From NCBI GenBank assembly GCA_035546615.1, contig DASZWM010000005.1, positions 1 through 64,000 of the forward strand: a stretch of 64,000 bases of DNA, written 5' to 3'. The position numbers and the translations under genes are program-made. This document shows, in pieces, positions 13,283-52,113 of the stretch. How positions within the stretch are numbered: the first letter of the stretch is position 1; each line of letters opens with the position of its first letter. This DNA is from Minisyncoccota bacterium (GTDB taxonomy: Bacteria > Patescibacteriota > Minisyncoccia > Phycocordibacterales > SBAW01). Below the pieces are notes generated by a model that worked only from the letters and a program-made list of their open reading frames with translations, was not told the origin of the DNA and ran no database searches.

Positions 13283-13289
13283 TATACGT

Positions 13290-22117: not shown

Positions 22118-23215
22118 ATGAAATTCGAATCCACAACTGAACAGCTCCTCTCGGCGGTTTCGCTTGCAAGCAGGTTCGTGGAAAAGCGCGCGAATCTTCC
22201 GGTGCTTGCAAGTATTCTGCTTATCGCCGAAAAAGGCCGCCTGATACTGCGCGCTACCAATCTTGAATGCGGGGTTGAAATAACCGCGCAGGCCAAAGTA
22301 CTTGAAGAGGGTATCGCGGCCATTCCGGGGTCAGTATTGGCCGGGTTCCTTGGGAATGCCCGCGGCAAGACTGTATCAGCTCAGCTTTCCGGAGGCACGC
22401 TCAAGATGGAGACGGAACGCGCTTCAGCGTCTATAAAAACCGTGCCGCATGAGGACTTTCCGATATTGCCGCAGGTAGCGGCTACTACGTCGCTTACGGT
22501 TAAAGCGAGCGACCTTTCCAAGCTTATCCGCTCGGTAGCGTATTGCGCTTCGACTTCCGCGATAAAGCCGGAGCTTCAGAGCGTGCTTATCTACGGAGAG
22601 GGCGGCAAGCTTGTGGCTGCTGCGACCGACTCATTCCGCTTAGCCGAAAAGAACGTATCGTTGCGCTCGCAAGGCTCGGTACCGCAGCTCCTGGTACCCG
22701 CGCGCAACGCAGTCGAGCTTAATCGCATACTTGAAGCCGCCTCGGGCGATGTAGAGATCTATTACAACGAGCACCAGATATCGGCCCATATCGGCTCTGT
22801 GTACTACACCAGCCGCCTCATAGACGGCTCGTTCCCGAACTACCGCCAGATAGTGCCCAAGGAGTTCGCCACGGAAGCCGTCGTGCTGCGCGAAGATATG
22901 TCAGGCGCGCTCAAATCACTTTCCCTGTTCGCGGACAAGCTGGCGCAGGTTTCACTCGCTGTAGAGCCTTCCAAGAAGGCTGTGCTGCTTACCTCGCGCA
23001 ATCCGGACGTAGGCGAGCAGGTGTCCACCTTGCGCGCCACGATATCTGGCGAAGAGGCAGCTATGAACTTCAACGGCCGCTACCTGGCAGACAGCCTCCA
23101 AGCAATAACAGGGGAGAGCGTCAGGCTTTCTTCAAACGGCCCGGGCAAGCCGCTGTTGGTCAAAGACGCCGGAGACGATTCCTTCTTCTACCTGGCAATG
23201 CCGATGAACCGCTAA
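22118..23215 (+). CDS. dnaN: DNA polymerase III beta sliding clamp.
   Basis: 365 aa with three-domain clamp architecture. Conserved N-terminus (…LLSAVSLASRFVEKRANLPVLASILL…) and C-terminal LAMPMN-type motif (YLAMPMNR). Confidence 0.9.
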   Translation: MKFESTTEQLLSAVSLASRFVEKRANLPVLASILLIAEKGRLILRATNLECGVEITAQAKVLEEGIAAIPGSVLAGFLGNARGKTVSAQLSGGTLKMETERASASIKTVPHEDFPILPQVAATTSLTVKASDLSKLIRSVAYCASTSAIKPELQSVLIYGEGGKLVAAATDSFRLAEKNVSLRSQGSVPQLLVPARNAVELNRILEAASGDVEIYYNEHQISAHIGSVYYTSRLIDGSFPNYRQIVPKEFATEAVVLREDMSGALKSLSLFADKLAQVSLAVEPSKKAVLLTSRNPDVGEQVSTLRATISGEEAAMNFNGRYLADSLQAITGESVRLSSNGPGKPLLVKDAGDDSFFYLAMPMNR

Positions 23216-23219
23216 AAAA

Positions 23220-24101
23220 ATGTCCAAAAAAGAGAATCCTATAAAAATACCAAAAAGACCAACATCTTTTGGCACTCCTGCTGAGTGTGTTCGGTGGGTT
23301 AAAAAATCCGTATATCTTATCGCTCGAGGAAGAGCTTTAAATCCAGAAAAACCAAATGAGCTAAGCTGGTTTACTATTGGAACAGGTTGTGTGGTCGCCC
23401 CCAACCGTATGAGTACTGCAGCCCATGTAATCAATGACCCCTCAAGTCTTGAAAAAACAAAACAGCATCAGTCGGGCGACCAATACTACCTCATTAGACA
23501 TGACGACGAAGGCAACTGGCACTTTAAGGTTCTCACACTAGAACTTAATAAAAATTTATTTTTATATTCTGAGACTGACCTTGGAATCATTTATCTCGAC
23601 GAAGAATTTTATCAAATAGGAGAACAGATTCTCGCGCTAAAGGACGATTATATAAGAGTTGATCAAAAATTTAGAGTGATAGGTACAGAGGTCGCTGTTT
23701 TAGGATACCCTCTTTGTAAGTTAGATTTTATAGAAAAAGATCCAAACAGGCCTCAAGTGGGGGACATATTACTCAGGGTAGACACAGGGGTTATAAACTG
23801 TCGATACAGAATAGCGGAAAATGTTTATCGTTATGAGTTTACTATGGGGTTTAACCCAGGAAATTCAGGAGGGCCTATTTTTGATTGGAGGACAGGGCAG
23901 CTGCTCTCCCTCGTGCATGGTTATAAGGCAATCCCGGTTAATATGTCTGAGCGCGTAATAACCGACGAAGTTAAAAAAAATTTAAAGATTAAAGATTATG
24001 ATGGGAAGTCATTTATCGAAGTCGTTCACGCTAACTACTCAGTGGGCTACGCTACCCCATCTTTTGTGGAGACATTCAAAATACACGGGATAGTAAAATA
24101 G
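23220..24101 (+). CDS. Trypsin-like (chymotrypsin-fold) serine protease with no signal peptide, on a low-GC inserted gene.
   Basis: Catalytic His (STAAHVIND) and Ser (GNSGGPIFDW) motifs. GC content is visibly lower than the flanks (A/T-rich codons throughout, e.g. aaaaaagagaatcctataaaaatacc). It has a hydrophilic Lys-rich N-terminus and no TM segment. Confidence 0.6.
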   Translation: MSKKENPIKIPKRPTSFGTPAECVRWVKKSVYLIARGRALNPEKPNELSWFTIGTGCVVAPNRMSTAAHVINDPSSLEKTKQHQSGDQYYLIRHDDEGNWHFKVLTLELNKNLFLYSETDLGIIYLDEEFYQIGEQILALKDDYIRVDQKFRVIGTEVAVLGYPLCKLDFIEKDPNRPQVGDILLRVDTGVINCRYRIAENVYRYEFTMGFNPGNSGGPIFDWRTGQLLSLVHGYKAIPVNMSERVITDEVKKNLKIKDYDGKSFIEVVHANYSVGYATPSFVETFKIHGIVK

Positions 24102-28584: not shown

Positions 28585-29112
28585 CTACGCGGCGTTTGTA
28601 TAGACCTCGTTAACATCATCGTTGTCCTCAAGCGCGTCGACGAGTTCGGAGAGCTTGCTGCCGTCTTCCTCGGAGATCTCGACGGTAGTTACGGGTTCGA
28701 GCTTGCCTTCGGCTCCTTTGGCGAAAGCCCATGACGCCGCGCCGGGCTGGGCGAGCGCGGAGCCATGCAAAGAAAGTATATGTTTTATTTCCTGCGCGGT
28801 GCGGTTGCGCGAGTCGGTGTAGCCTTCAATGACAAGCGCCACGCCGCCGGGGCCGTACGCCTCGTAGGAGACCGGCTCAAGCTCGCCGGTGGTCGACGCC
28901 TTGTCTATCGCGCGCTCGATATTGTCCGCCGGCATGTTCGCCGCTCGCGCTTTCTCGACGGCCGCGCGCACGCCGGGGGCGGTGCGGTCGCCCTTGGCCT
29001 TCTTAGCCTCTATAGAAATGAATCGCACGAGCTTGGAGAAAAGCTTCGCTTTCTGCGCGTCGGTCTTGCCTTTAGTATGTTTTAGTTTTGCCCACTTAGA
29101 ATGTCCGGCCAT
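28585..29112 (-). CDS. YebC/PmpR family DNA-binding regulator (short form).
   Basis: MAGHSKWAKLKHTKGKTDAQKAKLFSKL is the diagnostic YebC N-terminus. 175 aa. Adjacent to ruvC as in many bacteria. Confidence 0.8.
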   Translation of the reverse strand: MAGHSKWAKLKHTKGKTDAQKAKLFSKLVRFISIEAKKAKGDRTAPGVRAAVEKARAANMPADNIERAIDKASTTGELEPVSYEAYGPGGVALVIEGYTDSRNRTAQEIKHILSLHGSALAQPGAASWAFAKGAEGKLEPVTTVEISEEDGSKLSELVDALEDNDDVNEVYTNAA

Positions 29113-29215
29113 ATATCAAGACTATATACGAATCCCTATCTAAATTCCAAGAGATCGAACTGCTCTCCTAAAACCCTCTTTTTTAGGCTATATTTACCGC
29201 GATGTTGACATCTCC

Positions 29216-29245
29216 TTGACAGATGTAAACTTAAAGGGGTATTAT
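29216..29245 (+). promoter_or_regulatory. Sigma70-like promoter for the fic gene.
   Basis: TTGACA (29216-29221), 18-nt spacer, TATTAT (29240-29245). It is about 27 nt upstream of ATG 29273, in an AT-rich spacer. Confidence 0.4.
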
Positions 29246-29272
29246 CTTTACATCCTGTAGAGGGTAAAATAT

Positions 29273-30409
29273 ATGAAAATAGGAGAATTCATTCAGCAAC
29301 CCCAAGGTTTTAAAACCTTTGTGCCCGATAAGTTTCCTCACAAGGATTTATCAAGCGTTATATTAAATCCGCAAACCTCTCAGCTTCACGCCCGGGCCGC
29401 TTTTTTGCTTGGGAAGTTGGATGGCATCACTCAACTTCTGCCAGATTTGGATTTTTTCATCTTCATGTATGTAAGAAAAGAAGCGGCGTTCTCAAGCGAA
29501 ATAGAGGGCACAAGAGCGACAATGATTGACGCTATCAGAGCGGAAGTAGAACTTACTCGCGATCTGCCTAATGACGTGGAGAACATTCTAAAATACATTG
29601 ACGCAATGAACTATGGTCTTAAGAGACTCGAGAACTTTCCACTCTCTCTGCGCCTCATTCGAGAGGTACATAAGACCCTTCTTGAACAGACGCAAGGCGG
29701 TATAGGCAAAACACCAGGAGAGTTTAGAACTTCTCAAAATTGGATCGGGGGTGCCTCGCCCGCAACGGCACGCTTCGTACCACCCCCTGTCGCAGCTATG
29801 CATGACGCCCTAGGGGACTTAGAGAAGTTTCTACATAATAGTGCGGATATTCCACCTCTTATCAAAACCGCTCTTGCACACTCTCAGTTCGAAACAATAC
29901 ATCCTTTTCTGGATGGTAATGGCCGCACAGGTAGACTTCTCGTCACCTTTTACCTCTGCCAACAGGAAGTACTTGAACGTCCGGTATTGTATCTCTCTGC
30001 CTATTTTAAGAAGCATCGAGACACCTATTTTGATCTGCTTAACGGCTACCATAACAAAGGCGAAATAGTCCCGTGGCTGAACTTCTTTTTAGAAGGAGTG
30101 GCTGAAGTGGCAGAGGCAGCAATTAAGGTTTCTCAAGCCATTAATATCTTACGTGAGGAAGACCAAATGAAAATTCAGGCTTTTGGTAGGTCGGCTGGCG
30201 TAGCGATGAAAGTGCTAAGAGCGCTTTACAAACTTCCTATTGTAGACGTACGCAAAATTCAGGAGTTGACAGGCTATTCCAGAACAGCCGCGAACAACTT
30301 TGTGAAAAAGCTTGTGGATCTGGAGATTCTTGTTCAGCGTAATAAAAAAGCTACCTATGGGCGACAATTCGAATACGCACGCTATTTAAAACTCTTTGCA
30401 AAAGAGTAA
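29273..30409 (+). CDS. fic: Fic family protein (putative AMPylase) with an N-terminal inhibitory motif and a C-terminal winged-helix-like domain, on a low-GC gene.
   Basis: Fic active-site motif HPFLDGNGRTGR. SxxxEG inhibitory motif (AAFSSEIEGT) upstream in the same polypeptide (class II arrangement). GC is clearly lower than the flanks. Inserted between yebC and ruvB. Confidence 0.85.
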   Translation: MKIGEFIQQPQGFKTFVPDKFPHKDLSSVILNPQTSQLHARAAFLLGKLDGITQLLPDLDFFIFMYVRKEAAFSSEIEGTRATMIDAIRAEVELTRDLPNDVENILKYIDAMNYGLKRLENFPLSLRLIREVHKTLLEQTQGGIGKTPGEFRTSQNWIGGASPATARFVPPPVAAMHDALGDLEKFLHNSADIPPLIKTALAHSQFETIHPFLDGNGRTGRLLVTFYLCQQEVLERPVLYLSAYFKKHRDTYFDLLNGYHNKGEIVPWLNFFLEGVAEVAEAAIKVSQAINILREEDQMKIQAFGRSAGVAMKVLRALYKLPIVDVRKIQELTGYSRTAANNFVKKLVDLEILVQRNKKATYGRQFEYARYLKLFAKE

Positions 30410-41009: not shown

Positions 41010-41606
41010 TTATTTCATTGAACCCAGATGTTTAAGCGCGGCGGCCAGGCGTTCGCGCACCGCGGCGGCCTCGGGCGCATCCTTCGCACTTTCTTTTACC
41101 GCTTTGCGGGATTCGGACGCGGAGTACCCGAGCGCCATAAGCGCTTCAATCACTTCGCCGTCGCCTCCGGCACCCACGGCTTCGCCCCGCGCGGCCGCCT
41201 GGTCCGCCAGCTTATCGCGCAGTTCCACCACGATACGCTCCGCGCTCTTTTTGCCGATGCCAAACACTTTGGTGAGTATCGTGCTGTCGCCTTGCGCGAT
41301 GGAGCGCTTAAGCGTTGAGGCTTCGGCGACATTGAGTATGCCGAGCGCCGATTTCGGGCCGATGCCCGAGACGCTCGTGAGCTCCCGGAAGAAGGCGAGG
41401 TCGTCGCCGGTTGCAAAACCGTACAGGTCTATCGCGTCCTCGCGCACCGCCGTATGTATAAATAGAGAGATGTCGCCCGCGCGGCCGCTCATGGAAGATA
41501 TAAGGAGCGCCGGTACGCGCACGCAGTAGCCTACGCCGCCTACCTCCACTATGAGCGTCCCGTCTCCCGCCGTTCCCCCGTATCGTCCGGTCAGTTTGCC
41601 AATCAT
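41010..41606 (-). CDS. ruvA: Holliday junction DNA helicase RuvA.
   Basis: MIGKLTG N-terminus, OB-fold, two HhH motifs (VSGIGPKSALGIL; VFGIGKKSAERIV), and a C-terminal RuvB-interacting domain. Confidence 0.9.
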   Translation of the reverse strand: MIGKLTGRYGGTAGDGTLIVEVGGVGYCVRVPALLISSMSGRAGDISLFIHTAVREDAIDLYGFATGDDLAFFRELTSVSGIGPKSALGILNVAEASTLKRSIAQGDSTILTKVFGIGKKSAERIVVELRDKLADQAAARGEAVGAGGDGEVIEALMALGYSASESRKAVKESAKDAPEAAAVRERLAAALKHLGSMK

Positions 41607-41630
41607 GTAGTATTAGAGTACTATCTTCGC

Positions 41631-41873
41631 ATGGCAATTACCAAATCCGCCAAGAAAGCCCACCGCCAAAGCCTTCGCCGGAAGGTTATGAACGATGCGC
41701 GCAAGGACGCTTTGCGCGGGGCATTCAAGGGTATCCGCACGGCGGCCAAGGGTGACACCAAGGCTATCGCGGCGGCATACAAGGCTATCGATAAGGCGCT
41801 CAAGGGCGGCCTTATCAAGAAGAACACTGCCGCTCGCCGCAAATCAAAGGTTGCGCGGGCGCTTAAGGCCTAA
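41631..41873 (+). CDS. rpsT: 30S ribosomal protein S20.
   Basis: MAITKSAKKAHRQSLRRKVMN… is the typical S20 N-terminus. 80 aa, basic. Confidence 0.9.
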   Translation: MAITKSAKKAHRQSLRRKVMNDARKDALRGAFKGIRTAAKGDTKAIAAAYKAIDKALKGGLIKKNTAARRKSKVARALKA

Positions 41874-41888
41874 CTCTTTAGGCCACCC

Positions 41889-41960
41889 CCTCTCGTCGTT
41901 CAATGGATAGGACGCCTCCCTCCGAAGGAGGCGATGCAGGTTCGATTCCTGCCGAGAGGA
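41889..41960 (+). tRNA. tRNA-Arg (anticodon CCG), with an unusual C1:G72 first pair.
   Basis: Acceptor CCUCUCG/CGAGAGG, D-arm GUUCAAUGGAUAGGAC, anticodon stem CCUCC/GGAGG with loop CUCCGAA, T-arm GCAGGUUCGAUUCCUGC, discriminator A. The D and T arms are near-identical to the tRNA at 49626-49697. Confidence 0.6.
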
Positions 41961-42083
41961 CAAATTTCACGAAGTGAAATGTGCCTCTCGGAGCGCGCCA
42001 ACTGCTTGGCGCGAGTAAGGAATCGAAAGGCTTTTCGTTGCTTCGTCTAATAAAGTCGAAAAGCACCCGCGACGGGAGTCGAG

Positions 42084-42105
42084 ATTCCTGCCGAGAGGAC
42101 AAATT
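42084..42105 (+). repeat. Direct repeat copy of the tRNA-Arg 3' end (T-arm + acceptor + 6 nt downstream).
   Basis: gattcctgccgagaggacaaat is identical to 41945-41966 inside and just after the tRNA. A third, degenerate copy (ttcctgccgagagaacggatttt) is at 45645-45667 upstream of the second paralog. Confidence 0.55.
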
Positions 42106-42131
42106 GTGCATAAACAGCCTGGCGGAAAAAA

Positions 42132-43961
42132 ATGCGCTACTATGTATGCATGGTTCTACACCGCTCTTTGTCCGGCCTGACGTTCATCATCAGCATATTT
42201 GTATTTCTCTTCGCGCTTGCGATATTTTTTCCGCCTTCGTTCGCCAGTGCCGGAGGAGGGGGTGGGGGAAGCGGCGGGGGAGGCGCATCCTGCCCGCCGT
42301 TCGCGACGGACCCCCCTGCGGTGGCAGCTGTGCCGGGATATAAGCCTGCAGGCCCCACCCTCTACGAGATGCCGGGAAGCCTGGGATATTTCGACGCCGT
42401 CGTTCCCACCGTTGTAAAGCGGGCCTGGTACAACAAGATGCCGTCGGCCGGCGTATGTGGCGGGCAACAGATGGGCCTATGCATGACCGACAATTTTTCC
42501 GTTATCCAAGGAACGAAGATAGCGGCTCTCACCGCCTCTATGAATATCAAGCTCGGCAAGCCGGCGGCGTCGCAGGTGAGCATAGACGCTGTTACCAAGC
42601 CAATCAGCAATAACTGCGGACAAACTTCGACGCTCTGGTCGTACGTGCTTACCCCTTCGGCGGGGGACTTTACGATGAAGGTCCCCAAAGGCGTTTCGAT
42701 AGACCTGACCTACAGCTGTCAGCCGAACCAGACCTATACCTGGGAGACGCACACCAGCTGCTTTTTGGGCATCGGCAACTGCAACGTCCGGCAGCATGCG
42801 CGCTCGTTCATGTTCGCGGACCGCGCGGTAAGCAACATTCCCTCGGGCTCTTCCGGCCTTTCAGGCACCAAGACCTTCGTGCCCCAGGAAGGCACGTCCT
42901 ATTCGCTCGCCTGCGGCGGCTACCGTCCCGAGAACGGCAGCGCGACTCCTCCCACCTACGGCTCAGCGAGCAGCGCCGGAGGCGTATGCTTCCTCGGCAT
43001 CGACTGCGACAGCGGCGGCGACTTCTCCTCCTACAACGTCAAGGACTCCTCCTACCAGCAGCCCCCGCTGGCCATGTCTGTGGAGGCCTGCACCGGCGAC
43101 GACGAGGTAGTCGTCAATAACGTTTGCACCCCATGCTCGCAGGTGCTCCCGGGGAGCTGGCGCATCGAGAACATATGCGTCACTTCCTTGCCCGTGGTTT
43201 CCATTGACGCGTTCGTGAACGGAAAGTCGGTGAGCACCACGACTCCCGGCATCCCGGTTACCATACGCGCCACGTACGTTTCCACCACGTCCGACCCGAT
43301 AGCCGGCGCCGTCATCAATGGCGGGACCAAGGGCAAGGATACGCCGGCGTGCACCGGCTCGTGCATGCAGACTACCTATAGCCGCACCAAGGCCACCGCT
43401 ACCACTACGTACACATTCACGCCGAGCGCTTCGGGCGTTTTCACCTTCTATCCCTCGGTGCAGACCAAGCTGCTTGCCGCCTGGAGCAATTATGGCGATG
43501 TGTCGAAGACGCTCATCGTGGGCAACGCGTGTCCGGCTAACGCCACGCCCTCGGGCTCGAGCTGCACGTGCAACGACAAGTACTCCGCCTATATCGGCAA
43601 CGCGTGCGTGCTGACGTGCCCCGCGACCATGCATCCAAACATGAGCGGCAGCACCTGCATCGCCAACCTTCCCACGAGCGCGATGCTGGACTTCACCGCC
43701 CTGCGCGTGCGCGAAGGCGCCAGGTCCACCCTGTCATGGACGATACGAGGCATGCAGAGCGGCATCGCCTGCGACATCGCGCCGCGCGAGCTGCTTGAGA
43801 GTCCCATGCCGGCCTACCCCGGAGGCTCCACGTGGAGCGGCGCTCTCGGGACCACCCCCATCAAGGATCCCACGCGCTATACCCTGAGCTGCACCAACGG
43901 GGAGGAGACGGTTAGCAAGACAACGACCGTGCAGCTTATCCCCGAGTACCAGGAAATCTAA
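42132..43961 (+). CDS. Cys-rich secreted/surface protein, short paralog of the 45716-49552 gene.
   Basis: N-terminal hydrophobic anchor or signal (LTFIISIFVFLFALAIFFPPSFASA) and a short Gly run. Numerous Cys residues. The C-terminal ~90 aa are clearly homologous to the larger paralog (…STLSWTIRGMQSGIACDIAPRELLESPMPAYPGGSTW…YTLSCTNGEE…IPEYQEI). An alternative start is ATG 42150. Confidence 0.6.
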   Translation: MRYYVCMVLHRSLSGLTFIISIFVFLFALAIFFPPSFASAGGGGGGSGGGGASCPPFATDPPAVAAVPGYKPAGPTLYEMPGSLGYFDAVVPTVVKRAWYNKMPSAGVCGGQQMGLCMTDNFSVIQGTKIAALTASMNIKLGKPAASQVSIDAVTKPISNNCGQTSTLWSYVLTPSAGDFTMKVPKGVSIDLTYSCQPNQTYTWETHTSCFLGIGNCNVRQHARSFMFADRAVSNIPSGSSGLSGTKTFVPQEGTSYSLACGGYRPENGSATPPTYGSASSAGGVCFLGIDCDSGGDFSSYNVKDSSYQQPPLAMSVEACTGDDEVVVNNVCTPCSQVLPGSWRIENICVTSLPVVSIDAFVNGKSVSTTTPGIPVTIRATYVSTTSDPIAGAVINGGTKGKDTPACTGSCMQTTYSRTKATATTTYTFTPSASGVFTFYPSVQTKLLAAWSNYGDVSKTLIVGNACPANATPSGSSCTCNDKYSAYIGNACVLTCPATMHPNMSGSTCIANLPTSAMLDFTALRVREGARSTLSWTIRGMQSGIACDIAPRELLESPMPAYPGGSTWSGALGTTPIKDPTRYTLSCTNGEETVSKTTTVQLIPEYQEI

Positions 43962-45498
43962 TGTTTTTCTTGCGCGCGTACGCGGCCAGGAAAAGCGCCG
44001 CAATGGCCGCGTAGAGCGGATAGCTTCCCGCGAGCGAGTACAGCGTCGCGCGTCGCGCTTCGGGGATCTCGAGCGTGCCCTGAAGCAGGCCCTGCTGTCT
44101 GAAGCCGAGCGACTTCACCACGGCGCCGCGTGCGTCTATGAGCGCCGACGGCCCTTCTATAGAGGCCCGCACGGCGGGAATATTGTTCTCGGCGGCGCGG
44201 TAGCGGGCGGCCGTGAGGCTGTATGCCTCGCCGGCGTCTTCGGGCAGTATCCACTCGAACCCCATATTAAGGAAGAAGCCGGCGCCCTTGGCGTCGCGGC
44301 GGGCAAGGCCCGCCAGGTGTATTTCCGAGCACTGGAGGCTTGCGGCGACAACGCCGCTTTCAAGCTCGACAACGCCGCTTCCGGTGCCGGCGCTCAGGGG
44401 AGCGGGCGTCGGCCCGAAGCCGAAAGAAGCGTACGCAGGCGCGTATTCTGTAAATGCGAATAAGTTGCGTTTATCGTAAGCGGCGGCCAGCGTCCCCGAA
44501 TGCCAGAAGTGATATGTCTGGAAGTATTCGCCGCCCCGGTACGCGAGGTCCCAGGTAACCACCGTGCTCGAGGCGGGCGCGTTCTCGCGCATCCAGTCAT
44601 CGAGCGCCCGGCGCGGGAAGAACCGCAATTCTCCATAGCCGTCCGCGGGCGGCGCGCCCTCGTAGGCGACCTCGTTCGCCACTGCCGCCGGATAGACGAC
44701 GAGTTCATTCCCTTGCGCTCCGGCTTCGCGCAGCGCCGCGGCGAGCGCCGGGAACGTGAGGCGGTCCTGGTATACGTTGGCGAACGGGAGCGCGTCGCGC
44801 GGTCCCGCCTGCACCACGGCGACGCGCATCTCCCGCGGCGCGGGAGCGCCCCCGAGGTACCGCTCGTGCGCGAAGCACAGGAGCCATGCCGCCAGCGCGA
44901 GATATGCGGCCAGCGCGAGGGCCCGCCTGCGCTGGCCGCGCGGTGCGGCCAGCAGTTCTCCCGCGAGCGCTCCCGCGAGCGCAACCGTGAACGAGACGAG
45001 AGCCTCTCCTCCCAGCGCCGCTCCCGCGAAGGAGGCTGGCAGGAAGCCCGTCGTGTACGCCAGCGCGCCGAGATAATAATGGCCGGTCACCCACTGGAGG
45101 GCGCTTTCAAGCGTGACATACGCTCCCGCGAACAGCGCCGCATTGAGGAGAATCGAATCAAAGCGAAACGCGCGGTAGAGAACGATGCAGCCGCCCCCCA
45201 CGCATCCGAACAGGAGCGCCCACAGGACGGGGCTGCAGTGTATGAGCTCCAGGACGAACGGCGCGTCGGAGGGCCATGCGAAGCCCGTAAAGATAAAAGC
45301 GGAAAGCGATGCGCCGGGCAGGGCGCCGGCAATAAAACCCGCGACGAACAGGTGTTTTGCGGGGATGGGGGCCCTTCGCGCGGCGACAAAGACCACCGGC
45401 GCGAACGCCATAAGGGAGAAAAGGGGAGCGGAAAAAGGCGGCAGGGCCAGTGCAAGCAATACTCCCGAGGCGGCCGCAAAAACAAGGCTCATGACCAT
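43936..45498 (-). CDS. lnt: Apolipoprotein N-acyltransferase-like protein (Lnt family: polytopic N-terminal domain + CN-hydrolase domain).
   Basis: 6-7 N-terminal TM helices, then a nitrilase-fold region with a Cys motif LQCSEIHLAG (corresponding to the ICYE catalytic Cys region of Lnt). Start taken at ATG 45498; the ORF-track start at 45804 would overlap the downstream paralog. Confidence 0.65.
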   Translation of the reverse strand: MVMSLVFAAASGVLLALALPPFSAPLFSLMAFAPVVFVAARRAPIPAKHLFVAGFIAGALPGASLSAFIFTGFAWPSDAPFVLELIHCSPVLWALLFGCVGGGCIVLYRAFRFDSILLNAALFAGAYVTLESALQWVTGHYYLGALAYTTGFLPASFAGAALGGEALVSFTVALAGALAGELLAAPRGQRRRALALAAYLALAAWLLCFAHERYLGGAPAPREMRVAVVQAGPRDALPFANVYQDRLTFPALAAALREAGAQGNELVVYPAAVANEVAYEGAPPADGYGELRFFPRRALDDWMRENAPASSTVVTWDLAYRGGEYFQTYHFWHSGTLAAAYDKRNLFAFTEYAPAYASFGFGPTPAPLSAGTGSGVVELESGVVAASLQCSEIHLAGLARRDAKGAGFFLNMGFEWILPEDAGEAYSLTAARYRAAENNIPAVRASIEGPSALIDARGAVVKSLGFRQQGLLQGTLEIPEARRATLYSLAGSYPLYAAIAALFLAAYARKKNIRFPGTRG

Positions 45499-45715
45499 GA
45501 CGCAAGTATACTGTCTCCGCGCTGACCCTGCTTGCGGCATCCTTGCTGCCGGCATTCGGGCAGGCGTTCGTCTATTTCTGCAAACAGTCCTCCCGCCTCG
45601 GGGGCCTGGGCCGCATCCAGCGACGGCGAGAGGAGAGCCGAAGGCGTTTCCTGCCGAGAGAACGGATTTTGTGGACAAAATATTATGTAGCGAATTCTCG
45701 GGGTAGTATAGAAGA

Positions 45716-48700
45716 GTGAGCTTCAAGTGCTTGAAGAAATATTTTTTTCTCCTTCCGCTGCTTGTTTTTATAGGTCCTGCGCCCTTTGTCATGGCCGCCC
45801 CCACGTTTCAAGTGGGGCCGATTTACCTCACTACGACAAGCGCGTCAAACCAAACCTGGCCCGTGCCTTCTGACTGGAACAATGCGAGCAACATCGTGCA
45901 GGTTATTGCGGCTGGAGGAGGCGGGGGCGGAGTCGCCAGCAACACGACGGGGAGCGGCGGGGGCGGCGGGGGCGGCGGATATTCAAAATCGACAAATATT
46001 ACCCTTTCCGGTTCATCGGTAACGTATCGTCTTGCGCCCGGCGGCGCCGGCGGAGGATCGTCGGCTGCGGTTGCCGGAGGCGATGCATGGTTTAACGGCA
46101 CCACATGCGCGGCTGCCTCCGTCTGCGCGAAAGGCGGAGGGGCAGGGGGCGCAGGCACAGGCGGAGGGGGAGGCGCCGCGGGCGCAGGCGGGCCGGCTAC
46201 AGGAGGAGTCGCGTCAGGCACCGGCTCAATAAAAAATAACGGCGGCGCAGGCGGGGCAGGCACAGGTGTTTCCGCCGGCGGCGGAGGGGGCGGCGCGGGC
46301 GGCCCAAACGCCGCCGGCGGGACTGGCAATCGCACCAATGGCGGGCAAGGGGACGGCACTGCAGGCGGCGCCGGCGGGATGACAAGCCTCATCAGGGCCG
46401 CGTCTGCTGGAAGCCCAGGAACTGAATTTTCATCCTCGCCCGCGTACGGGTCCGGCGGCGGCGGCGGAGGTTCTAGATACGCAGCGGACGCGGCAGCGGG
46501 AGGCACGTACGGCGCGGGCGGCGGCGGAGCTTTTGCTGCCTCCTCCGGTACCCTCCGCCGCGGAGGAGCCGGCGCTCCCGGGCTTATTGTGATTAATTAC
46601 AGCGCACCTCTTACCGTTTCCATTACCGCGCCGACCAACAGCGGCAACGCATGTATTGGCACGCCCGGTGCATTTACCATCAGCCGCAACGGGCCGGCAA
46701 CTTGGCCTGCAGTGCCGGTTGATCTTATATACGGCGGAAGCGGGAGCACCGCGGCTGCGGGGATAGACTACTCCGCTGCTGCGACAACGGTCACCATACC
46801 GGCAAATACCATGTCTATAACGCTTCCCATTACCGCGCTTCAAAAAACATCGGGCGGCAGCACTACGCTCAAGGCGACCATAGCCGCATCCTCGGCCTAT
46901 TCCGTCGGTACGCCAGCGAGCGCCACAATAGTTATTAACAATGGGACTCCGGCGATTGAGACAGTCGCCCCCTACACGATCGCTCCTTTTGCTGCTTACC
47001 CATTGCCCTACAATGGCTACATTTATCACCAAAATGGCGGTTCCGGCTACACTAATCCATTTGCCACTCCCGCAAGCATTCTTAATACATGGATCAGCAA
47101 TAGCCCTTCGCCCCAACTATGCGGCGCCAACGGCGGTACGGCCGGTATATCGCTTCCTAGTGACACGGCACAGGGCGTATGCATGGGTCCTAATTTCTCC
47201 GGCACTGTAGCAGGCACCCGGGTTGCGGTCCTGCAGGCGGTAGCGCAGACTGCAGGCATTCCTCCGGTTAATGTCGGCCTCGATCTCACGAATGTCAAAA
47301 AAACAAATCCTTGCAACACTTCAACAACGCACTGGGCGTACGCTACTGCGCCGACACAAAATACGCCCGCCGCGACGCTTAAGGTCCCTAAATACACACC
47401 GGTCCAGTTCTCTTATCAATGTTTGCCGAACCAGAATTATGTTTGGTTTAACGCCGCATGCCAAGGCGCTTACATTATTAGCTGCCTTAGCTGGACGCTT
47501 GTTACCGATGGCGACCTCAATGTCCAGACAGCGGATCGAGCGTGGTACAAGGGCACTGAAACGGCGAACCTTATCGACAGTTCTACGCAGACATTCAGCA
47601 ATTCGCAGAGCGTTACGCTCCAATGCGGCGGCTATCAGCCTCAAGAAGGGATTCCCGCAAACGGCGGTTCTCCGCCAGCTGCATCCTCCGGCACTGCTCC
47701 TACTGGAGGCAGCTACACGGTATACGGTATGCAGAATCCTTCCTATCGGCAGCCGCAAATACAAGTTGACGTACAGACATGCTCGGATCCTACCGCTATC
47801 GTACAGGGCGGTGCGTGCGTTCCGTGCAATACGGTAACTTCGGGCAGTTATCGTTCGGGTAATACCTGCGTCTTGTATCCGCCCCCGACGGCGACTATCC
47901 AAGCCAATAACGCCGGTTTTCAAGCGGCAGACAGCAGCGGCAACAAGAACGGAAAATTAGTTTCAGTTGGGGCGGGACAGCAAGTAACTGTAGCCGCCAC
48001 GTATGCTGGCAGTACCAATCAAACTCAAAAAACCGTCTTTATTACTGCCGCAGGTTCTGGCGTATGGACCGTGCCAAGCGATTGGAACAGCGCCAATAAC
48101 AGCATCGAGGTTATAGGCGGCGGCGGCACGGCGGCTTTTACGGGAGGCCGAGGCGGCGGGGGCGGCGGCGGCGCGTATTCAAAAAAGACTAATATTTCCC
48201 TCACGCCTGGCGCGCCTGTGACATATAGGGTGGGTCAAGGTGCGGCCCAAGGGAGTCCGGCCGCTCCGGGTGACGATACTTTTTTTAACCGGACCGCCGG
48301 TTCCTCAAATACCTGCGCCGATACGGTTTCGGTATGTGCCAAGGGCGGAAACAGCGGCAATGGCAACAATGGTGGAGCTGGAGGCGCTGCGAGTGGCGGC
48401 GTCGGCACTGTTAAATATTCGGGGGGCGCCGGCGCTTACGGCGATAATAACAATTCCGGCAACGGCGGCGGCGCAGGAGGTCCCAACGGGAATGGTCAAG
48501 CGGGAGACAGTGGCGGCGCAGGGGATGCGGGGCTTGGCGGCGCGGGCAGCGGTTGTGGCAACCCACCTGCGGCTGGGGGGAATGGTGCCGAGTGGATTGC
48601 TACCAATGTGTGGAGTGGCACTGCATACACGGGCGCAACGCCGACGGGCGGCTCCGGCGGGGGCGGCGGGTGCCGCTCATCCATTGCCGCTCCGGGCGGT

Positions 48701-49552
48701 AACGGCGGTTTGTATGGCGGCGGAGGCGGCTCCGGCGGAGGCAGCCAGAGCAATGAAGGAGTCGGGGCTCAGGGCATTATCGTAATCAAATATACCTCAA
48801 CCGGCGACCCTCTTGAGGCTACCGCTATCAATTGCGACTCGGGATGCGATTCACAGGACGGTGATACTGTTAACTGTAACCTTGTTGCTCCTCCCAATCC
48901 GCCGGCGGCTCCTGATCCAAACTGTTGGCGGAAACCCGATGCGACAAAGACGTATACCTTTACGCCGGCATCAGCAGACGCGGGAAAGACGTTTGTATTT
49001 TCCGCACAGGCAAAAACTTTTAACTACATCAACTATAACGGCTACGCTACCGTGCAGGTGCGGGTATGCCCGATCGGTCAGGGAACGGACGGCAACGGCG
49101 GATGTATTGCGGACGCATGCACCAACAATATCGTATTCCCAGGCAGCCAGACGACAGTACCCGCAGGATGTACGGGTAATCCGGACAATACGTGCAGCGT
49201 GCCCACCGGCTATGCGTTCAACGGCGCGGCCTGCGTCCCTTCAGCTCCGTCGGTTCCGACCCTTAGCCAAAACTCATTTACCGCCACCCGCGTACGTATG
49301 GGGGCGGCATCGACGCTTTCATGGAACATACCGGGTATGGCGAGCGGCATTACATGCGATATCAGTCCTGCGGATAAATTGCAGAGCCCGATGCCTGCCT
49401 GGACAAGCGGCTCTACTTGGATCGGCTCGGTACAGACGACCAGCATATACGGGCCCACCAAATATACGCTCACGTGCACTAACAGCACGACCGACCCGCC
49501 GGCCACCCGCAGCGTCATCGTCAACATCATCCCTGCGTATCAGGAGATATAG
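45716..49552 (+). CDS. Giant (1278 aa) secreted glycine-rich / Cys-rich surface protein with two internally duplicated Gly-rich modules and a C-terminal domain shared with the 42132 paralog.
   Basis: Signal peptide MSFKCLKKYFFLLPLLVFIGPAPFVMAAP. Module 1 (aa about 40-300) and module 2 (aa about 770-1010) both begin W(P/T)VPSDWN…IEVIGGGG…YSK(K)TNI(T/S)L…VTYR… and end …G(A/G)(P/Q)G(L/I)IVI(N/K)Y. The C-terminus …STLSWNIPGMASGITCDISPADKLQSPMPAWTSGSTW…YTLTCTN…IPAYQEI matches the paralog. Confidence 0.7.
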   Translation: MSFKCLKKYFFLLPLLVFIGPAPFVMAAPTFQVGPIYLTTTSASNQTWPVPSDWNNASNIVQVIAAGGGGGGVASNTTGSGGGGGGGGYSKSTNITLSGSSVTYRLAPGGAGGGSSAAVAGGDAWFNGTTCAAASVCAKGGGAGGAGTGGGGGAAGAGGPATGGVASGTGSIKNNGGAGGAGTGVSAGGGGGGAGGPNAAGGTGNRTNGGQGDGTAGGAGGMTSLIRAASAGSPGTEFSSSPAYGSGGGGGGSRYAADAAAGGTYGAGGGGAFAASSGTLRRGGAGAPGLIVINYSAPLTVSITAPTNSGNACIGTPGAFTISRNGPATWPAVPVDLIYGGSGSTAAAGIDYSAAATTVTIPANTMSITLPITALQKTSGGSTTLKATIAASSAYSVGTPASATIVINNGTPAIETVAPYTIAPFAAYPLPYNGYIYHQNGGSGYTNPFATPASILNTWISNSPSPQLCGANGGTAGISLPSDTAQGVCMGPNFSGTVAGTRVAVLQAVAQTAGIPPVNVGLDLTNVKKTNPCNTSTTHWAYATAPTQNTPAATLKVPKYTPVQFSYQCLPNQNYVWFNAACQGAYIISCLSWTLVTDGDLNVQTADRAWYKGTETANLIDSSTQTFSNSQSVTLQCGGYQPQEGIPANGGSPPAASSGTAPTGGSYTVYGMQNPSYRQPQIQVDVQTCSDPTAIVQGGACVPCNTVTSGSYRSGNTCVLYPPPTATIQANNAGFQAADSSGNKNGKLVSVGAGQQVTVAATYAGSTNQTQKTVFITAAGSGVWTVPSDWNSANNSIEVIGGGGTAAFTGGRGGGGGGGAYSKKTNISLTPGAPVTYRVGQGAAQGSPAAPGDDTFFNRTAGSSNTCADTVSVCAKGGNSGNGNNGGAGGAASGGVGTVKYSGGAGAYGDNNNSGNGGGAGGPNGNGQAGDSGGAGDAGLGGAGSGCGNPPAAGGNGAEWIATNVWSGTAYTGATPTGGSGGGGGCRSSIAAPGGNGGLYGGGGGSGGGSQSNEGVGAQGIIVIKYTSTGDPLEATAINCDSGCDSQDGDTVNCNLVAPPNPPAAPDPNCWRKPDATKTYTFTPASADAGKTFVFSAQAKTFNYINYNGYATVQVRVCPIGQGTDGNGGCIADACTNNIVFPGSQTTVPAGCTGNPDNTCSVPTGYAFNGAACVPSAPSVPTLSQNSFTATRVRMGAASTLSWNIPGMASGITCDISPADKLQSPMPAWTSGSTWIGSVQTTSIYGPTKYTLTCTNSTTDPPATRSVIVNIIPAYQEI

Positions 49553-49590
49553 CGGGAGGAGGAATTTTGCTCCGCTTAGCACACAAGCGC

Positions 49591-49618
49591 AAAACCTGCC
49601 GCAGGGCAGGTTGTTGCG
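49591..49618 (+). terminator. Rho-independent terminator after the giant surface-protein gene.
   Basis: aacctgcc-gcag-ggcaggtt is an 8-bp perfect stem, followed by a T-rich run (ttgttgcg). Confidence 0.5.
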
Positions 49619-49625
49619 TCTAGTG

Positions 49626-49697
49626 TGCTCCCGGTAGGAATCGAACCTACATCACGAACTCCGCAAGCTCGTGTCCTATCCATTGAACGACGGGAGC
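49626..49697 (-). tRNA. tRNA-Arg (anticodon read as GCG).
   Basis: Reverse complement folds as acceptor GCUCCCG/CGGGAGC, D-arm GUUCAAUGGAUAGGAC, anticodon stem CGAGC/GUUCG with loop UUGCGGA, T-arm GUAGGUUCGAUUCCUAC, discriminator A. The isotype call rests on the loop register. Confidence 0.6.
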
Positions 49698-50254: not shown

Positions 50255-51067
50255 ATGAAGACAATCAAACTAAACGAGGATGCGAATATCCCCGTGCTCG
50301 GCCTGGGCACGTGGCAGCTGACGGGGGATGCGTGCACGGAAGCCGTCCGCTACGCGCTTGAGCTCGGCTACACGCATATCGATACCGCCGATGTGTATGG
50401 TAATCATGCGGAAGTGGCGAGCGGCGCTAAAGCCTCCGGCGTCGCACGGGAGAAGTTCTTCCTTACCACCAAGGTGTGGCGCACCGACTTGGCGCACGAC
50501 CCGCTTGTGGAGAGCGCGGACCGCTTTCTTGAAGAGCTCGCTACCGACTATATCGACCTCCTCCTTATTCACTGGCCTAACAGCGAGATTCCTGTCGAGG
50601 CCAGTCTTAGGGCGATGGAGGAGCTTAAGCGCGCCGGAAAGGTGCGCGCGATAGGCGTTTCTAACTTTACTGTTCATCACCTTAAGGACGCACTTGAAGC
50701 CGGGGTTGAAATAACCAACAACCAAGTAGAGATACGTCCCGCCTTCGCGCAAAAAGAACTGCGTGATTTCTGTGCTTCCAAGGATATTTCCGTAACCGCG
50801 TACTCGAGCCTGCGCGGCGGTGCTAATGAATTGCCGCTTATCGTGGAATTGGCAGGGAAGTACGGCAAGACTGCTTCGCAGATAATCCTCAACTGGGTTG
50901 TGGCTCGCGGCATGATAGCGATACCTAAGAGCTCGCACCCGGAGCGCATTAAAGAGAATTTCGAGTCAGTAGATTTCGAAATGGAAGAAGCGGACCTCGC
51001 GCGCATAGATGCGCTGCCGGAAGGGAAGCGGGTTAATACGCCGGCCTTCGGGGAATTCGATTATTGA
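50255..51067 (+). CDS. Aldo/keto reductase (2,5-diketo-D-gluconate reductase-like).
   Basis: AKR motifs IPVLGLGTW, GYTHIDTADVYGNH, LLLIHWP and IGVSNF. 270 aa. Confidence 0.85.
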   Translation: MKTIKLNEDANIPVLGLGTWQLTGDACTEAVRYALELGYTHIDTADVYGNHAEVASGAKASGVAREKFFLTTKVWRTDLAHDPLVESADRFLEELATDYIDLLLIHWPNSEIPVEASLRAMEELKRAGKVRAIGVSNFTVHHLKDALEAGVEITNNQVEIRPAFAQKELRDFCASKDISVTAYSSLRGGANELPLIVELAGKYGKTASQIILNWVVARGMIAIPKSSHPERIKENFESVDFEMEEADLARIDALPEGKRVNTPAFGEFDY

Positions 51068-51414
51068 GAAAAGTTTTTGCCGATGGCATTCCACGGCAGT
51101 TTCATGCCTGATTCCGGAAACTTGTCGAGAATCCATTGTACGTAAGTATTACTGTTGGGACCACGCAAGCCGTATTTCTCTTTAAAAGGATATTGATCTA
51201 CAGAAGAAGTAATACAGTCAGCCATTCGCTCCGCAGTGGAACCATCTGCACCTTCGACAGTATCTACTATTGCAGAATTCCAGTGGAAGTAATGAACAAA
51301 AGCGAATGTCTGTATCCCGTCGGTAGGGGAAAGTAAGTCTGCGTCGAGATGGCCCCAGCTTTTGTCGCGAATCTGTCGTCCGAATCCTATTTCCCAGCGT
51401 GATATAGCGCCTTT
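51061..51414 (-). pseudogene. 5'-truncated gene remnant (117 codons open, no start codon), low GC.
   Basis: Minus-strand frame is open from a TAA at 51417..51415 to a TAA at 51063..51061. It encodes a protein-like sequence (…WGHLDADLLSPTDGIQTFAFVHYFHWNSAIVDTVEGADGS…YGLRGPNSNTYVQWILDKFPESGMKLPW…) but has no ATG/GTG/TTG near its 5' end. It lies adjacent to the HNH endonuclease and tRNA-Ser. Confidence 0.35.
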
Positions 51415-51544
51415 TTATTCACGACGAACCAAGGATGGATAGCAAAGTTAAAAGGGATACAGGCAGGACATGCAAAAAGAAATACCTGATATAAGTCTTT
51501 CTTTAAGAGTTTCTGGAACTCGGCTTCGGTCATATTTCCAAACT

Positions 51545-51631
51545 TTGGCGGAGGGGGTGAGATTCGAACTCACGGTACCTTGCGGTACTCTTGTTTTCAA
51601 GACAAGTGCACTCGGCCTCTATGCGACCCCT
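51545..51631 (-). tRNA. tRNA-Ser (anticodon TGA), long variable arm, CCA encoded.
   Basis: Reverse complement: acceptor GGAGGGG/CCCCUCC, anticodon stem CUUGU/ACAAG with loop CUUGAAA, long variable arm AGUACCGCAAGGUACC, T-arm GUGAGUUCGAAUCUCAC, then G + CCA. Confidence 0.8.
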
Positions 51632-52113
51632 CCCTGGCGATTTTGTATCTTACCACTGTACCAGTTATTTTCTAGGTAATGTTCCTCTGAGTGACAATTT
51701 GGACAAAGTAGTTCCAGGTTATCCAGCGTATTGTGTTGCCGGTTTCTGTCTTTGTGATGTACGTTTAATATCTCATACCTTGCATATCCGCATCGTTCGC
51801 AAATGGGGCCTCGCAGTTTCAACAGACGAAGTTTCAAGCCTCGCTGGTATACAACTTTGTCCTTAGGCGCTCGACCTTTGTATTTTATTCCTGCACGGTT
51901 GGTATTGGCGCAGCCTCTGCTACATGTATTTTTGTTTGCACTAGAGAGAATAGGTTTACCGCAGACAACACAAGGGTGTTCTTTTCGAGTAGCTAGTCCA
52001 TAACAGGTTTGACTGCAAAATACTCGACCTTGTTTAATTTGACCCGGTCGTCTATAGATTGGTTTGCCACAAACTGTGCATGCAGTATTGGGATTTCTTT
52101 TATACTCATCCAC
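51619..52113 (-). CDS. HNH endonuclease, on a low-GC gene.
   Basis: Zn-finger-like CxxC pairs (CTVCGKP; CVVCGKP; CERCGYARY). HNH motif ILNVHHKDRNRQHNTLDNLELLCPNCH. GC is lower than the genome average. The last 13 nt overlap the 5' end of tRNA-Ser. Confidence 0.75.
   Translation of the reverse strand: MDEYKRNPNTACTVCGKPIYRRPGQIKQGRVFCSQTCYGLATRKEHPCVVCGKPILSSANKNTCSRGCANTNRAGIKYKGRAPKDKVVYQRGLKLRLLKLRGPICERCGYARYEILNVHHKDRNRQHNTLDNLELLCPNCHSEEHYLENNWYSGKIQNRQGGVA

Follow-up and report, generated by a model that had tools for sequence, protein, structure and literature searches.

An Lnt-like gene and its C-terminal-domain partners in a surface-protein locus of Candidatus Paceibacterota

Why does a gene resembling that for apolipoprotein N-acyltransferase (Lnt) stand between two genes for large secreted proteins that have no lipobox? 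The question is raised by a locus in a 64-kb stretch of DNA (the window) from one metagenome-assembled genome of Candidatus Paceibacterota, a member of the candidate phyla radiation (CPR)/Patescibacteria. The list of open reading frames (ORFs) places three genes between two inverted tRNA-Arg genes: P1 on the forward strand, the Lnt-like gene on the reverse strand and bigP, the larger of the two secreted-protein genes, again on the forward strand. Loci with which they were compared carry numbers of the form L0xx. A large part of bacterial diversity belongs to CPR/Patescibacteria. They live in attachment to other cells, and how they build and hold their surface proteins is hardly known at all.

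The best explanation overall, to which we give a probability of about 0.5, is that this is a surface locus in which the Lnt-like protein and the proteins bearing a common C-terminal domain (CTD), P1 and bigP among them, would form an enzyme and cargo system. An earlier description, made from the letters and ORFs alone and referred to here as the sequence-only reading, had taken the region for an island of duplicated surface-protein genes and had suspected that they were linked to the Lnt-like gene.

The Lnt-like gene and its C-terminal-domain partner

The alternative that survives best is that the gene encodes an ordinary apolipoprotein N-acyltransferase acting on lipoproteins processed by Lgt and Lsp, its CTD neighbour being an inherited gene order locked in place by the overlap of the two 3' ends. 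Family membership speaks for it. Matches to LNT_N (PF20154, 37.4 bits against 27.1) and CN_hydrolase (PF00795, 38.2 against 23.2) lie above the Pfam cut-offs, and hhalign aligns the protein with canonical Lnt, co-linear from end to end, over 472 columns at a probability of 100%. Its profile matches Pseudomonas aeruginosa Lnt (PDB 5n6m, E 1.5e-12); only the profile search reached an Lnt in the PDB, and single-sequence PDB searches with P1, bigP and the Lnt-like protein returned nothing useful. Hydropathy gives seven hydrophobic segments in the N-terminal part and one at the C-terminus, behind which stands RKK. Homologues of 511-524 amino acids (aa) and a conserved TATACT-N6-ATG layout place the start at 45498, so that the maximal ORF (43936-45804, 622 aa) is an over-extension. 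From this maximal ORF arose the statement in the sequence-only reading that the 5' ends of both paralogues overlap the Lnt-like gene. The overlap is confined to the 3' end of P1, tail to tail over 26 nt (43936-43961), and 217 bp separate the gene from the start of bigP; that it converges with P1 and diverges from bigP had been read correctly.

The catalytic residues set the protein apart from ordinary Lnt. In alignment with Escherichia coli Lnt (b0657), Lys335, Glu343 and Cys387-x-Glu are conserved and the window protein keeps Lys343 and Cys390, but YPAA stands opposite the WPES motif, which puts Ala at the Glu267 position (YPAAV opposite WPESA with both MAFFT and hhalign). Glu267, Lys335 and Cys387 constitute the Lnt catalytic triad (PMC5500888). 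All 12 CPR homologues keep Lys335 and Cys387-x-Glu and lack the Glu, in place of which stand the chemically unrelated residues A, L, W, F, H, D, S or Y. All of those scored also fall below the TIGR00546 equivalog cut-off of 132.9 bits, with 78.6 for the window protein, 62.5 for L021 and 113 for L010. The product is a non-canonical Lnt-family protein whose nitrilase-like domain faces outwards. No description of Lnt in CPR/Patescibacteria was found in the literature searched.

Lnt-like loci were gathered from genomes, metagenomes and a protein database, of which the word-indexed protein search gave only 12 homologues. The set lacking the catalytic Glu has 12 members, namely the window, L001, L003, L011 and L012 and the more distant L010, L014, L015, L016, L021, L022 and L024; these proteins fall into at least five lineages, between which identity is 26-35%. 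The canonical, Glu-containing set is made up of E. coli, L017-L020 and L023. With a hidden Markov model (HMM) built on the C-terminal 100 residues of P1-family proteins, a convergent CTD gene was found beside the Lnt-like gene at 12/12 Glu-less loci (E 1e-11 to 1e-34), the partners ending in, among others, VPAFQEI, DPHYKEL, IPGFEEI and TPHFEEF. No CTD neighbour was found at the canonical genes, which lie in other contexts, as in L023 where PhoH, YbeY, CorC and Lnt follow one another. This order, ybeZ-ybeY-corC-lnt, is known from E. coli.

The two genes of a pair usually overlap by 4-48 nt, as a locked gene order would have it, but the pairing also holds across a gap of 15 nt in L010 and of about 570 nt in L014. 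It likewise survives a change of both outer neighbours, which are S20 and a tRNA in the window, NusG in L010 and the series EF-P to sigma-70 in L021 and L022. The smallest partners (209-232 aa; L021, L022 and L024) consist of a transmembrane segment, Cys-x6/7-Cys-GGGG, a small Cys knot and the CTD, and the partner in L010 has an ALK/LTK-type glycine-rich domain in addition. The pair occurs throughout a deep clade of Patescibacteria. That the tail-to-tail arrangement is kept in every Glu-less Lnt homologue found gives substance to the link that had been suspected between the surface proteins and the Lnt-like gene. Since the pairing is seen also where the genes do not overlap and where both flanks have changed, the comparison favours a real functional link between the Lnt-like and CTD proteins, which we hold to be somewhat more likely than not, and an ordinary Lnt beside an inherited neighbour becomes unlikely.

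In the window the overlap is itself coding on both strands, the Lnt-like tail FPGTRG* being encoded opposite the P1 tail IPEYQEI* (43936-43961), so that the two conserved C-termini constrain each other. RFPGTRG is also kept in L003 and L004.

Beyond these pairs, the CTD stands at the end of many other large modular surface proteins dispersed through the same genomes. The P1 profile recovered 180 representatives at E <= 1e-3 (50% clustering), most of them matching only its last 100-260 residues, and the match stands at the very end of proteins of 84-1996 aa. Among 149 representatives examined the end of the CTD is present in 142 and forms the extreme C-terminus in 134, with Pro at -6 and Glu at -2 in 129 of these 134. 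The tail reads P-x-[F/Y/V]-x-E-[I/L], position -1 being mostly Ile and position -4 Phe, Tyr or Val; related Ig-like domains situated internally are without it. P598, Q601, E602 and I603 are invariant among P1 orthologues, and C541 and C581 are kept family-wide. The domains that precede the CTD are diverse and include LamG, Kelch, BNR-like repeats and glycine-rich modules. CTD genes are dispersed, three each being present in L026 and L027 with no Lnt-like gene nearby. The single named member belongs to a Patescibacteria bacterium. Neither Pfam nor NCBIfam contains a model that matches the CTD, and no sorting signal of the C-terminal kind was found described for CPR in the literature searched. 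The distribution suggests that the CTD may be a family-wide C-terminal signal, in a many-to-one relation with the Lnt-like enzyme.

Three further observations concern members of this family. Eight of them (P0143, P0152, P0154, P0155, P0166, P0178, P0185 and P0206) share an N-terminal motif, …(S/T)xxEL(K/R)xLAxLCxGxAxL…, whose Cys is invariant and lies at that edge of the signal-anchor helix which faces the cytoplasm; the motif is absent from P1 and bigP. A gene for an IS200/IS605-type Y1 transposase lies directly upstream of P0154 (L026, 2761-3477). The gene call for P0191 in L028 (5524-8358) starts inside tRNA-Arg(CCG) (5510-5582), so that its first 17 residues (MDRMPPSEGGDAGSIPA) are translated tRNA, and the real start is probably MAISIRAH….

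A partnership without catalysis also has to be weighed, in which a pseudo-enzyme would serve as a membrane dock for the CTD tail, or a small CTD protein as a subunit or regulator. The general-base Glu has indeed been lost, and the minimal partners are hardly more than a transmembrane segment, poly-Gly, a Cys knot and the CTD. The last three residues of P1 have a predicted local distance difference test (pLDDT) value of 57 in the structural model, so that the tail is exposed there. On the other hand, Lys and Cys are invariant across lineages only 26-35% identical, which suggests retained chemistry, and a domain that occurs on many large, mutually unrelated proteins encoded well away from the gene is more easily understood as a signal than as a subunit. 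We regard such a partnership as improbable.

Under the preferred explanation of an enzyme and its cargo, P1 and bigP would be exported by Sec and displayed on the cell. On the outer side of the membrane the Lnt-like enzyme would recognise the CTD with its exposed tail and would then process or anchor the CTD proteins, one enzyme serving many cargos as do sortase, exosortase and PorU. Two chemistries are candidates: a Cys-thioester transamidation that would join the protein to a membrane lipid amine, and an N-acylation of the mature N-terminus, which in the Lnt-adjacent partners would be poly-Gly. A sorting or anchoring relation of this kind is put forward tentatively, at somewhat less than even odds. 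The wider proposal, of an undescribed sorting or anchoring system found across Patescibacteria in which a membrane Cys enzyme of nitrilase fold would act on CTDs, possibly by lipid transamidation, is more doubtful again; here the carboxylate now missing from the enzyme might come from the cargo, whose tail has an invariant Glu.

Several points weigh against the enzyme and cargo explanation. Overlapping 3' ends could alone make a pair hard to separate, although L010 and L014 are paired without overlap, and genes in convergent orientation do not share a transcript. Without the catalytic Glu the protein could be inactive, and an ordinary role in lipoprotein maturation is possible if these genomes have Lgt and LspA. 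The CTD proteins end directly at …P-x-F-x-E-I, with no hydrophobic helix or basic tail. Finally, the Glu-less sample is small (12) and was collected by homology to this locus.

The two secreted proteins

P1 begins with a signal peptide (…SFASA|GGGGGG) and a poly-Gly linker. Ig-like beta-sandwiches follow in a string that contains small Cys knots, and the CTD closes the protein. An AlphaFold2 model from 55 sequences (pLDDT 86.4) is all-beta, with an N-terminal hydrophobic helix and a disordered poly-Gly linker ahead of the beta-sandwich string. Foldseek with the whole protein found only generic Ig strings (titin, DSCAM, invasin and PrgB), and no family was found for P1, the CTD or the small partners in Pfam, NCBIfam or PHROGs. 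Judged from its promoter layout and its public counterpart, the start is most likely at 42150 and not at 42132, the upstream ATG that gives a 609-aa version.

The sequence-only reading had proposed two secreted paralogues of 609 and 1278 aa. Their paralogy is supported by BLASTP, with 38% identity over 209 aa in the C-terminal part (E 2e-30) and 28% over 354 aa in the Cys-containing core (E 6e-29), and the length of 1278 aa stands; for P1, 603 aa is likelier. BLASTP and direct reading also bear out the common C-terminal domain ending IP(E/A)YQEI, which measures about 100 aa, and the common Cys-containing blocks. The Cys counts, 24 in P1 and 31 in bigP, are compatible with an extracytoplasmic location.

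Direct reading agrees, too, that a lipobox is missing from both: in P1 the first Cys comes about 20 residues past the A-S-A cleavage site, and Cys5 is the only Cys of bigP near its signal peptide. Lipoprotein status was considered for both and ruled out on this ground. The Cys-x6/7-Cys-GGGG of the small partners was likewise rejected as a lipobox, since it is too far from the hydrophobic segment. A poly-Gly run of 5-10 residues directly follows the N-terminal hydrophobic segment in Lnt-adjacent partners (window 42246-42290; L021 7425-8123; L022 5829-6464; L024 1645-2274), coming after the A-S-A cleavage site in the window and after Cys-x6/7-Cys in the small partners. The mature N-terminus of Lnt-adjacent partners may accordingly be poly-Gly.

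bigP is arranged as signal peptide (…FVMA|AP), glycine-rich module 1, a further beta region, a P1-like core, glycine-rich module 2 and a P1-like C-terminal part. Its GTG start at 45716 is supported because the signal peptide is shared with the L003 orthologue. The database version of the protein (P0132, 1229 aa) is truncated at the N-terminus and is without the signal peptide that this start provides.

Two copies of a glycine-rich module had been noted in bigP, and they correspond to two stretches matching Pfam PF21722 (36.9 bits against a gathering score of 24.3). Module 1 has 139 homologues, mostly unnamed proteins of 300-480 aa, and matches phage families, some of them annotated as tail proteins. 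AlphaFold with a 36-sequence alignment gave a model with pLDDT 91.2 and a predicted template modelling score of 0.90, and its fold is the TNF-like sandwich plus glycine-rich lattice that characterises the Pam3 gp24-like domain. In cyanophage Pam3 the gp24 unit that combines TNF-like with glycine-rich parts recognises the receptor of the host and is similar to the adhesin gp38 of S16 (PMC9608196).

No phage structural gene or chaperone gene was found near bigP, the neighbours being S20, RuvA, a Mur ligase, tRNAs and an aldo-keto reductase, and bigP is a cellular protein that uses a phage receptor-binding fold. It had been argued beforehand that homology of the modules to a known phage tail-fibre family would explain the locus trivially. 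Such homology exists for the module; it leaves the pairing with the Lnt-like gene and the CTD unexplained. The adhesin-like role suggested in the sequence-only reading fits the folds of both proteins, P1 being a string of Ig-like domains and the modules of bigP having the tail-fibre fold. bigP is a P1-type scaffold that has received two receptor-binding modules of phage tail-fibre type. Its role would be that of an adhesin, with lineages exchanging its binding modules. Its orthologues, of 1278-1838 aa, differ in the content and order of their LamG (LamG_3) and glycine-rich (Gly_rich_2) modules and align to the window protein only in parts.

The chromosomal slot between the tRNA-Arg genes

The features of the locus are listed in Table 1. 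ARAGORN confirms the two tRNA-Arg genes that had been placed at the ends of the region in opposite orientations. The likeness reported for their D and T arms is also real (the 18-nt D-arm region is identical, the T arm nearly so, and the genes are 78% complementary over 73 nt), and is normal for isoacceptors.

Table 1. Coordinates of the features of the locus in the window
Feature	Position	Strand	Remarks
tRNA-Arg(CCG)	41889-41961	+	ARAGORN; Rfam tRNA 61.7 bits; left neighbour, in the same place in L001-L006 and L028
Repeat copy 1	41944-41966	+	Last 18 nt of tRNA-Arg(CCG) and 5 flanking nt; 23-nt direct repeat, repeat family D7
Spacer between copies 1 and 2	41967-42082	+	116 nt; stable fold, z = -5.1 against shuffles
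Repeat copy 2	42083-42105	+	23/23 identical; 45 nt upstream of the P1 start codon
P1	42150-43961	+	603 aa; ORF; 100% match to public P0001 (603 aa, Candidatus Paceibacterota); TACTAT-N6-ATG layout; start most likely
CTD of P1	43662-43958	+	About 100 aa, beta-sandwich, near-invariant Cys pair, tail IPEYQEI-COOH; CTD HMM positions 2-102
Lnt-like gene	43936-45498	-	520 aa; multi-pass membrane domain, extracytoplasmic nitrilase-like domain, last transmembrane helix; 3' overlap with P1
Spacer Lnt-like gene/bigP	45499-45715	.	Divergent; 217 bp; 66-140 bp in L001, L003 and L004
Repeat copy 3	45646-45668	+	19/23; 48 nt upstream of the bigP start codon; absent from relatives
bigP	45716-49552	+	1278 aa; GTG start, signal peptide; P1-type scaffold with extra modules; 18.8% Gly
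Glycine-rich module 1	45791-46615	+	TNF-like beta-sandwich and glycine-rich lattice; phage tail-fibre receptor-binding fold
P1-like Cys-containing core	47021-48022	+	bigP residues about 436-769
Glycine-rich module 2	48020-48850	+	Inserted between P1-like core and P1-like C-terminal part; PF21722; PHROG 4474; 47% identical to module 1 (alignment A4)
CTD of bigP	49250-49549	+	Ends IPAYQEI-COOH; CTD HMM positions 5-102; lies in the part 38% identical to P1 by BLASTP
8-bp inverted repeat	49593-49612	.	AACCTGCC GCAG GGCAGGTT; between the bigP stop codon and the tRNA; direct reading
tRNA-Arg(GCG)	49625-49697	-	ARAGORN; right neighbour of the locus

The order S20, tRNA-Arg(CCG), P1, Lnt-like gene (reverse strand) and bigP is kept in four related lineages, represented by L001/L002, L003, L004-L006 and the window. 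Identities among them are 69-85% for housekeeping neighbours, 53-59% for P1 and 51-56% for the Lnt-like protein. The description of the locus as rapidly diversifying does not suit P1, which is co-linear at that level of identity, and does suit the varying domain content of bigP. The position of tRNA-Arg(GCG) is the same in L001 and L028; in L006 it lies two genes further off, and in L003 there is none within 2.9 kb. L028 has all eight window tRNAs in the same order and a single CTD gene (LamG and glycine-rich) between the two tRNA-Arg genes, with no P1 or Lnt-like gene within 16 kb. L008 (CAZLHN010000036.1), labelled 'uncultured Candidatus Saccharibacteria', contains P1, Lnt-like and bigP genes essentially identical to the Paceibacterota-type locus of L004-L006, and its bin has probably been mislabelled.

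Beyond the locus the window consists of ordinary chromosome, with genes for S20, RuvA, the Mur ligase, a SpoU methylase, PolA, PilB, DnaN, a class A penicillin-binding protein and UvrD and eight scattered tRNAs. No integrase or transposase domain was found in the three inter-tRNA genes (ORFs, Pfam, NCBIfam). The composition of the block is unremarkable, its guanine-plus-cytosine (GC) content of 0.54-0.69 being in line with the window and due to Gly/Ala-rich coding. Taken together, the region can be described with high confidence as a chromosomal, vertically inherited cell-surface locus of Candidatus Paceibacterota.

Gene starts were assigned from conserved -10-like boxes and homologue lengths. 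In front of S20 (41596-41633), P1 (42127-42152), the Lnt-like gene (45496-45521, reverse strand) and bigP (45690-45718) a -10-like box (TACTAT, TATACT or TAGTAT) ends 6-8 nt before the start codon, as in TTGCCA-17-TACTAT of S20 with ATG 6 nt later. This layout leaves no room for a Shine-Dalgarno sequence and is kept in relatives, and it suggests that the transcripts may be leaderless. The spacer between the Lnt-like gene and bigP has such conserved boxes 6-8 nt before both start codons and is some 75-150 bp longer here than in relatives. The promoters of P1, bigP and the Lnt-like gene were not flagged by a consensus promoter scan. Nor did a consensus scan flag the inverted repeat behind bigP, which is probably a terminator hairpin.

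The remaining alternative is that of a horizontally acquired island between the tRNA-Arg genes, in which a surface-protein gene was duplicated together with its tRNA-proximal leader and coupled to a bona fide N-acylation enzyme. As the sequence-only reading had it, copies of the tRNA-Arg 3' end do stand upstream of both paralogues. Counting the tRNA itself the motif occurs three times, against 0.14 expected for its 13-mer core, and 0/100 shuffles reach three occurrences. With copies 2 and 3 at +139 bp and +3.7 kb, the repeats flank the spacer and the pair formed by P1 and the Lnt-like gene, and do not flank the whole inter-tRNA block; the pair lies exactly between copies 2 and 3, which is suggestive. 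The content of the slot varies as well, with one CTD gene among the same eight tRNAs in L028 and two extra genes before the second tRNA in L006. A viral contig, the AT-rich L025 (IMG/VR UViG_3300049217_000272), contains a 32-nt fragment of the tRNA-Arg(CCG) 3' end (29/32; 10038-10069) with no tRNA gene and a second CCGAGAGGAC about 60 nt downstream. The fragment resembles the attP of a phage integrating at tRNA-Arg(CCG), and it is plausible that the tRNA-Arg 3' end is a recombination site.

The duplication of gene and leader, however, finds no support. In relatives carrying both paralogues the P1 promoter directly follows the tRNA and copies 2 and 3 are missing, so these are not relics of an old gene duplication. 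The paralogues are 28-38% identical, which indicates an old duplication, whereas copy 2 matches at 23/23 positions. Beyond the 23 nt there is no significant likeness between the regions upstream of copies 2 and 3 (score 17 against 14.8 +/- 2.2, reached by 100/500 shuffles), and the idea that the two window-specific upstream segments are copies of one small mobile element was dropped for this reason. The copies of the tRNA 3' end are significant but lineage-specific.

Nor is the first upstream segment foreign DNA, a possibility that was also considered and rejected, its 5' part being common to L028. A stretch of about 30 nt beginning 14 nt past the tRNA (41980-42010) matches the sequence that lies equally far behind the tRNA in L028 (score 35 against 14.1 +/- 2.1; 0/500 shuffles), so that part of the apparent 139-bp insertion is ancestral, and no single scheme of integration or deletion fits all loci. 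The 116-nt spacer was also examined as a possible RNA gene: Rfam at E <= 1 matched only the two tRNAs, and relaxed ARAGORN found no tRNA or tmRNA on the forward strand.

The word 'island' holds in so far as the content of the slot varies; because L028 has one gene between the same two tRNA-Arg genes the slot is variable, yet it is not a recently acquired island. With synteny to S20, RuvA and the Mur ligase in four lineages, no mobility gene and a GC content that fits the window, horizontal acquisition of the locus as a leader-duplicated island can be set aside as improbable.

Elsewhere in the window, a TraG/VirB4-type P-loop ATPase (13269-15107) lies beside ORFs of 613, 722 and 783 aa without a Pfam match (large ORFs 7350-11328 and 14531-16882), and the neighbourhood may be a type IV secretion or conjugation-like cluster. 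GC content dips to 0.43-0.46, against about 0.57 for the window, at 23001-24000, 29001-30000 and 51001-52000. The dips fall on genes for a trypsin-like peptidase and a Fic/DOC protein (29273-30409) and, by tRNA-Ser, on an HNH-endonuclease-like ORF (51619-52113).

Consequences and comparison with known systems

If the enzyme and cargo explanation is right, the CTD, present on well over 100 distinct large surface proteins, would offer a sequence handle for listing the surface proteome, and the Lnt-like protein would be a candidate enzyme for the anchoring step. It would also mean that the Lnt/nitrilase scaffold has been re-used without its catalytic Glu, and that cellular adhesins of CPR use a phage tail-fibre receptor-binding module which is exchanged between lineages at one chromosomal slot.

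The locus has in common with tRNA-gene-associated islands the direct repeats of the tRNA 3' end downstream of the gene, a varying gene content and a phage contig with the same tRNA fragment. It differs in having no integrase, a normal composition, a block kept in four lineages and repeats that do not fit one integration.

The modules of bigP compare with the phage tail-fibre receptor-binding domain of Pam3 gp24 (PDB 7ypx) and Bxb1 gp33/gp29 (Pfam PF21722 and PF12810), which is related to S16 gp38 and to the glycine-rich domain of ALK/LTK. They have the same TNF-like and glycine-rich fold, which in phages recognises host receptors (PMC9608196). In bigP, by contrast, the domain is embedded twice in a Sec-exported cellular protein of many domains, without an N-terminal trimerising helix and with no chaperone gene or phage genes nearby.

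With Lnt (E. coli b0657, P. aeruginosa 5n6m, TIGR00546) the Lnt-like protein shares its two-domain architecture, its length, Lys335, Cys387 and the Glu of C-x-E, and an end-to-end alignment. The CPR subfamily is distinguished by the absence of Glu267, by scores under the equivalog cut-off and by its gene context, which is not that of lipoproteins or ybeX and is always tail to tail with a CTD protein lacking a lipobox.

The closest parallels to the proposed arrangement are the C-terminal sorting systems: sortase/LPXTG, exosortase/PEP-CTERM, archaeosortase/PGF-CTERM, rhombosortase/GlyGly-CTERM and the CTD/PorU pair of the type IX secretion system. The CTD is not of the tripartite LPXTG or PEP-CTERM type, there being no hydrophobic helix or basic tail after the motif; the candidate enzyme is of the Lnt/nitrilase family, outside the known families of sorting enzymes; processing of the CTD is here our inference; and no genes of a type IX secretion system were seen. 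The likenesses lie in the organisation. As in those systems, a conserved signal stands at the extreme C-terminus of many unrelated secreted proteins, with one candidate enzyme per genome and one cargo gene adjacent to it. One enzyme with many cargos, and one cargo beside the enzyme, is the logic by which the exosortase and rhombosortase systems were found. As in the type IX secretion system, moreover, the signal is a folded beta-sandwich of about 100 aa and not a short peptide.

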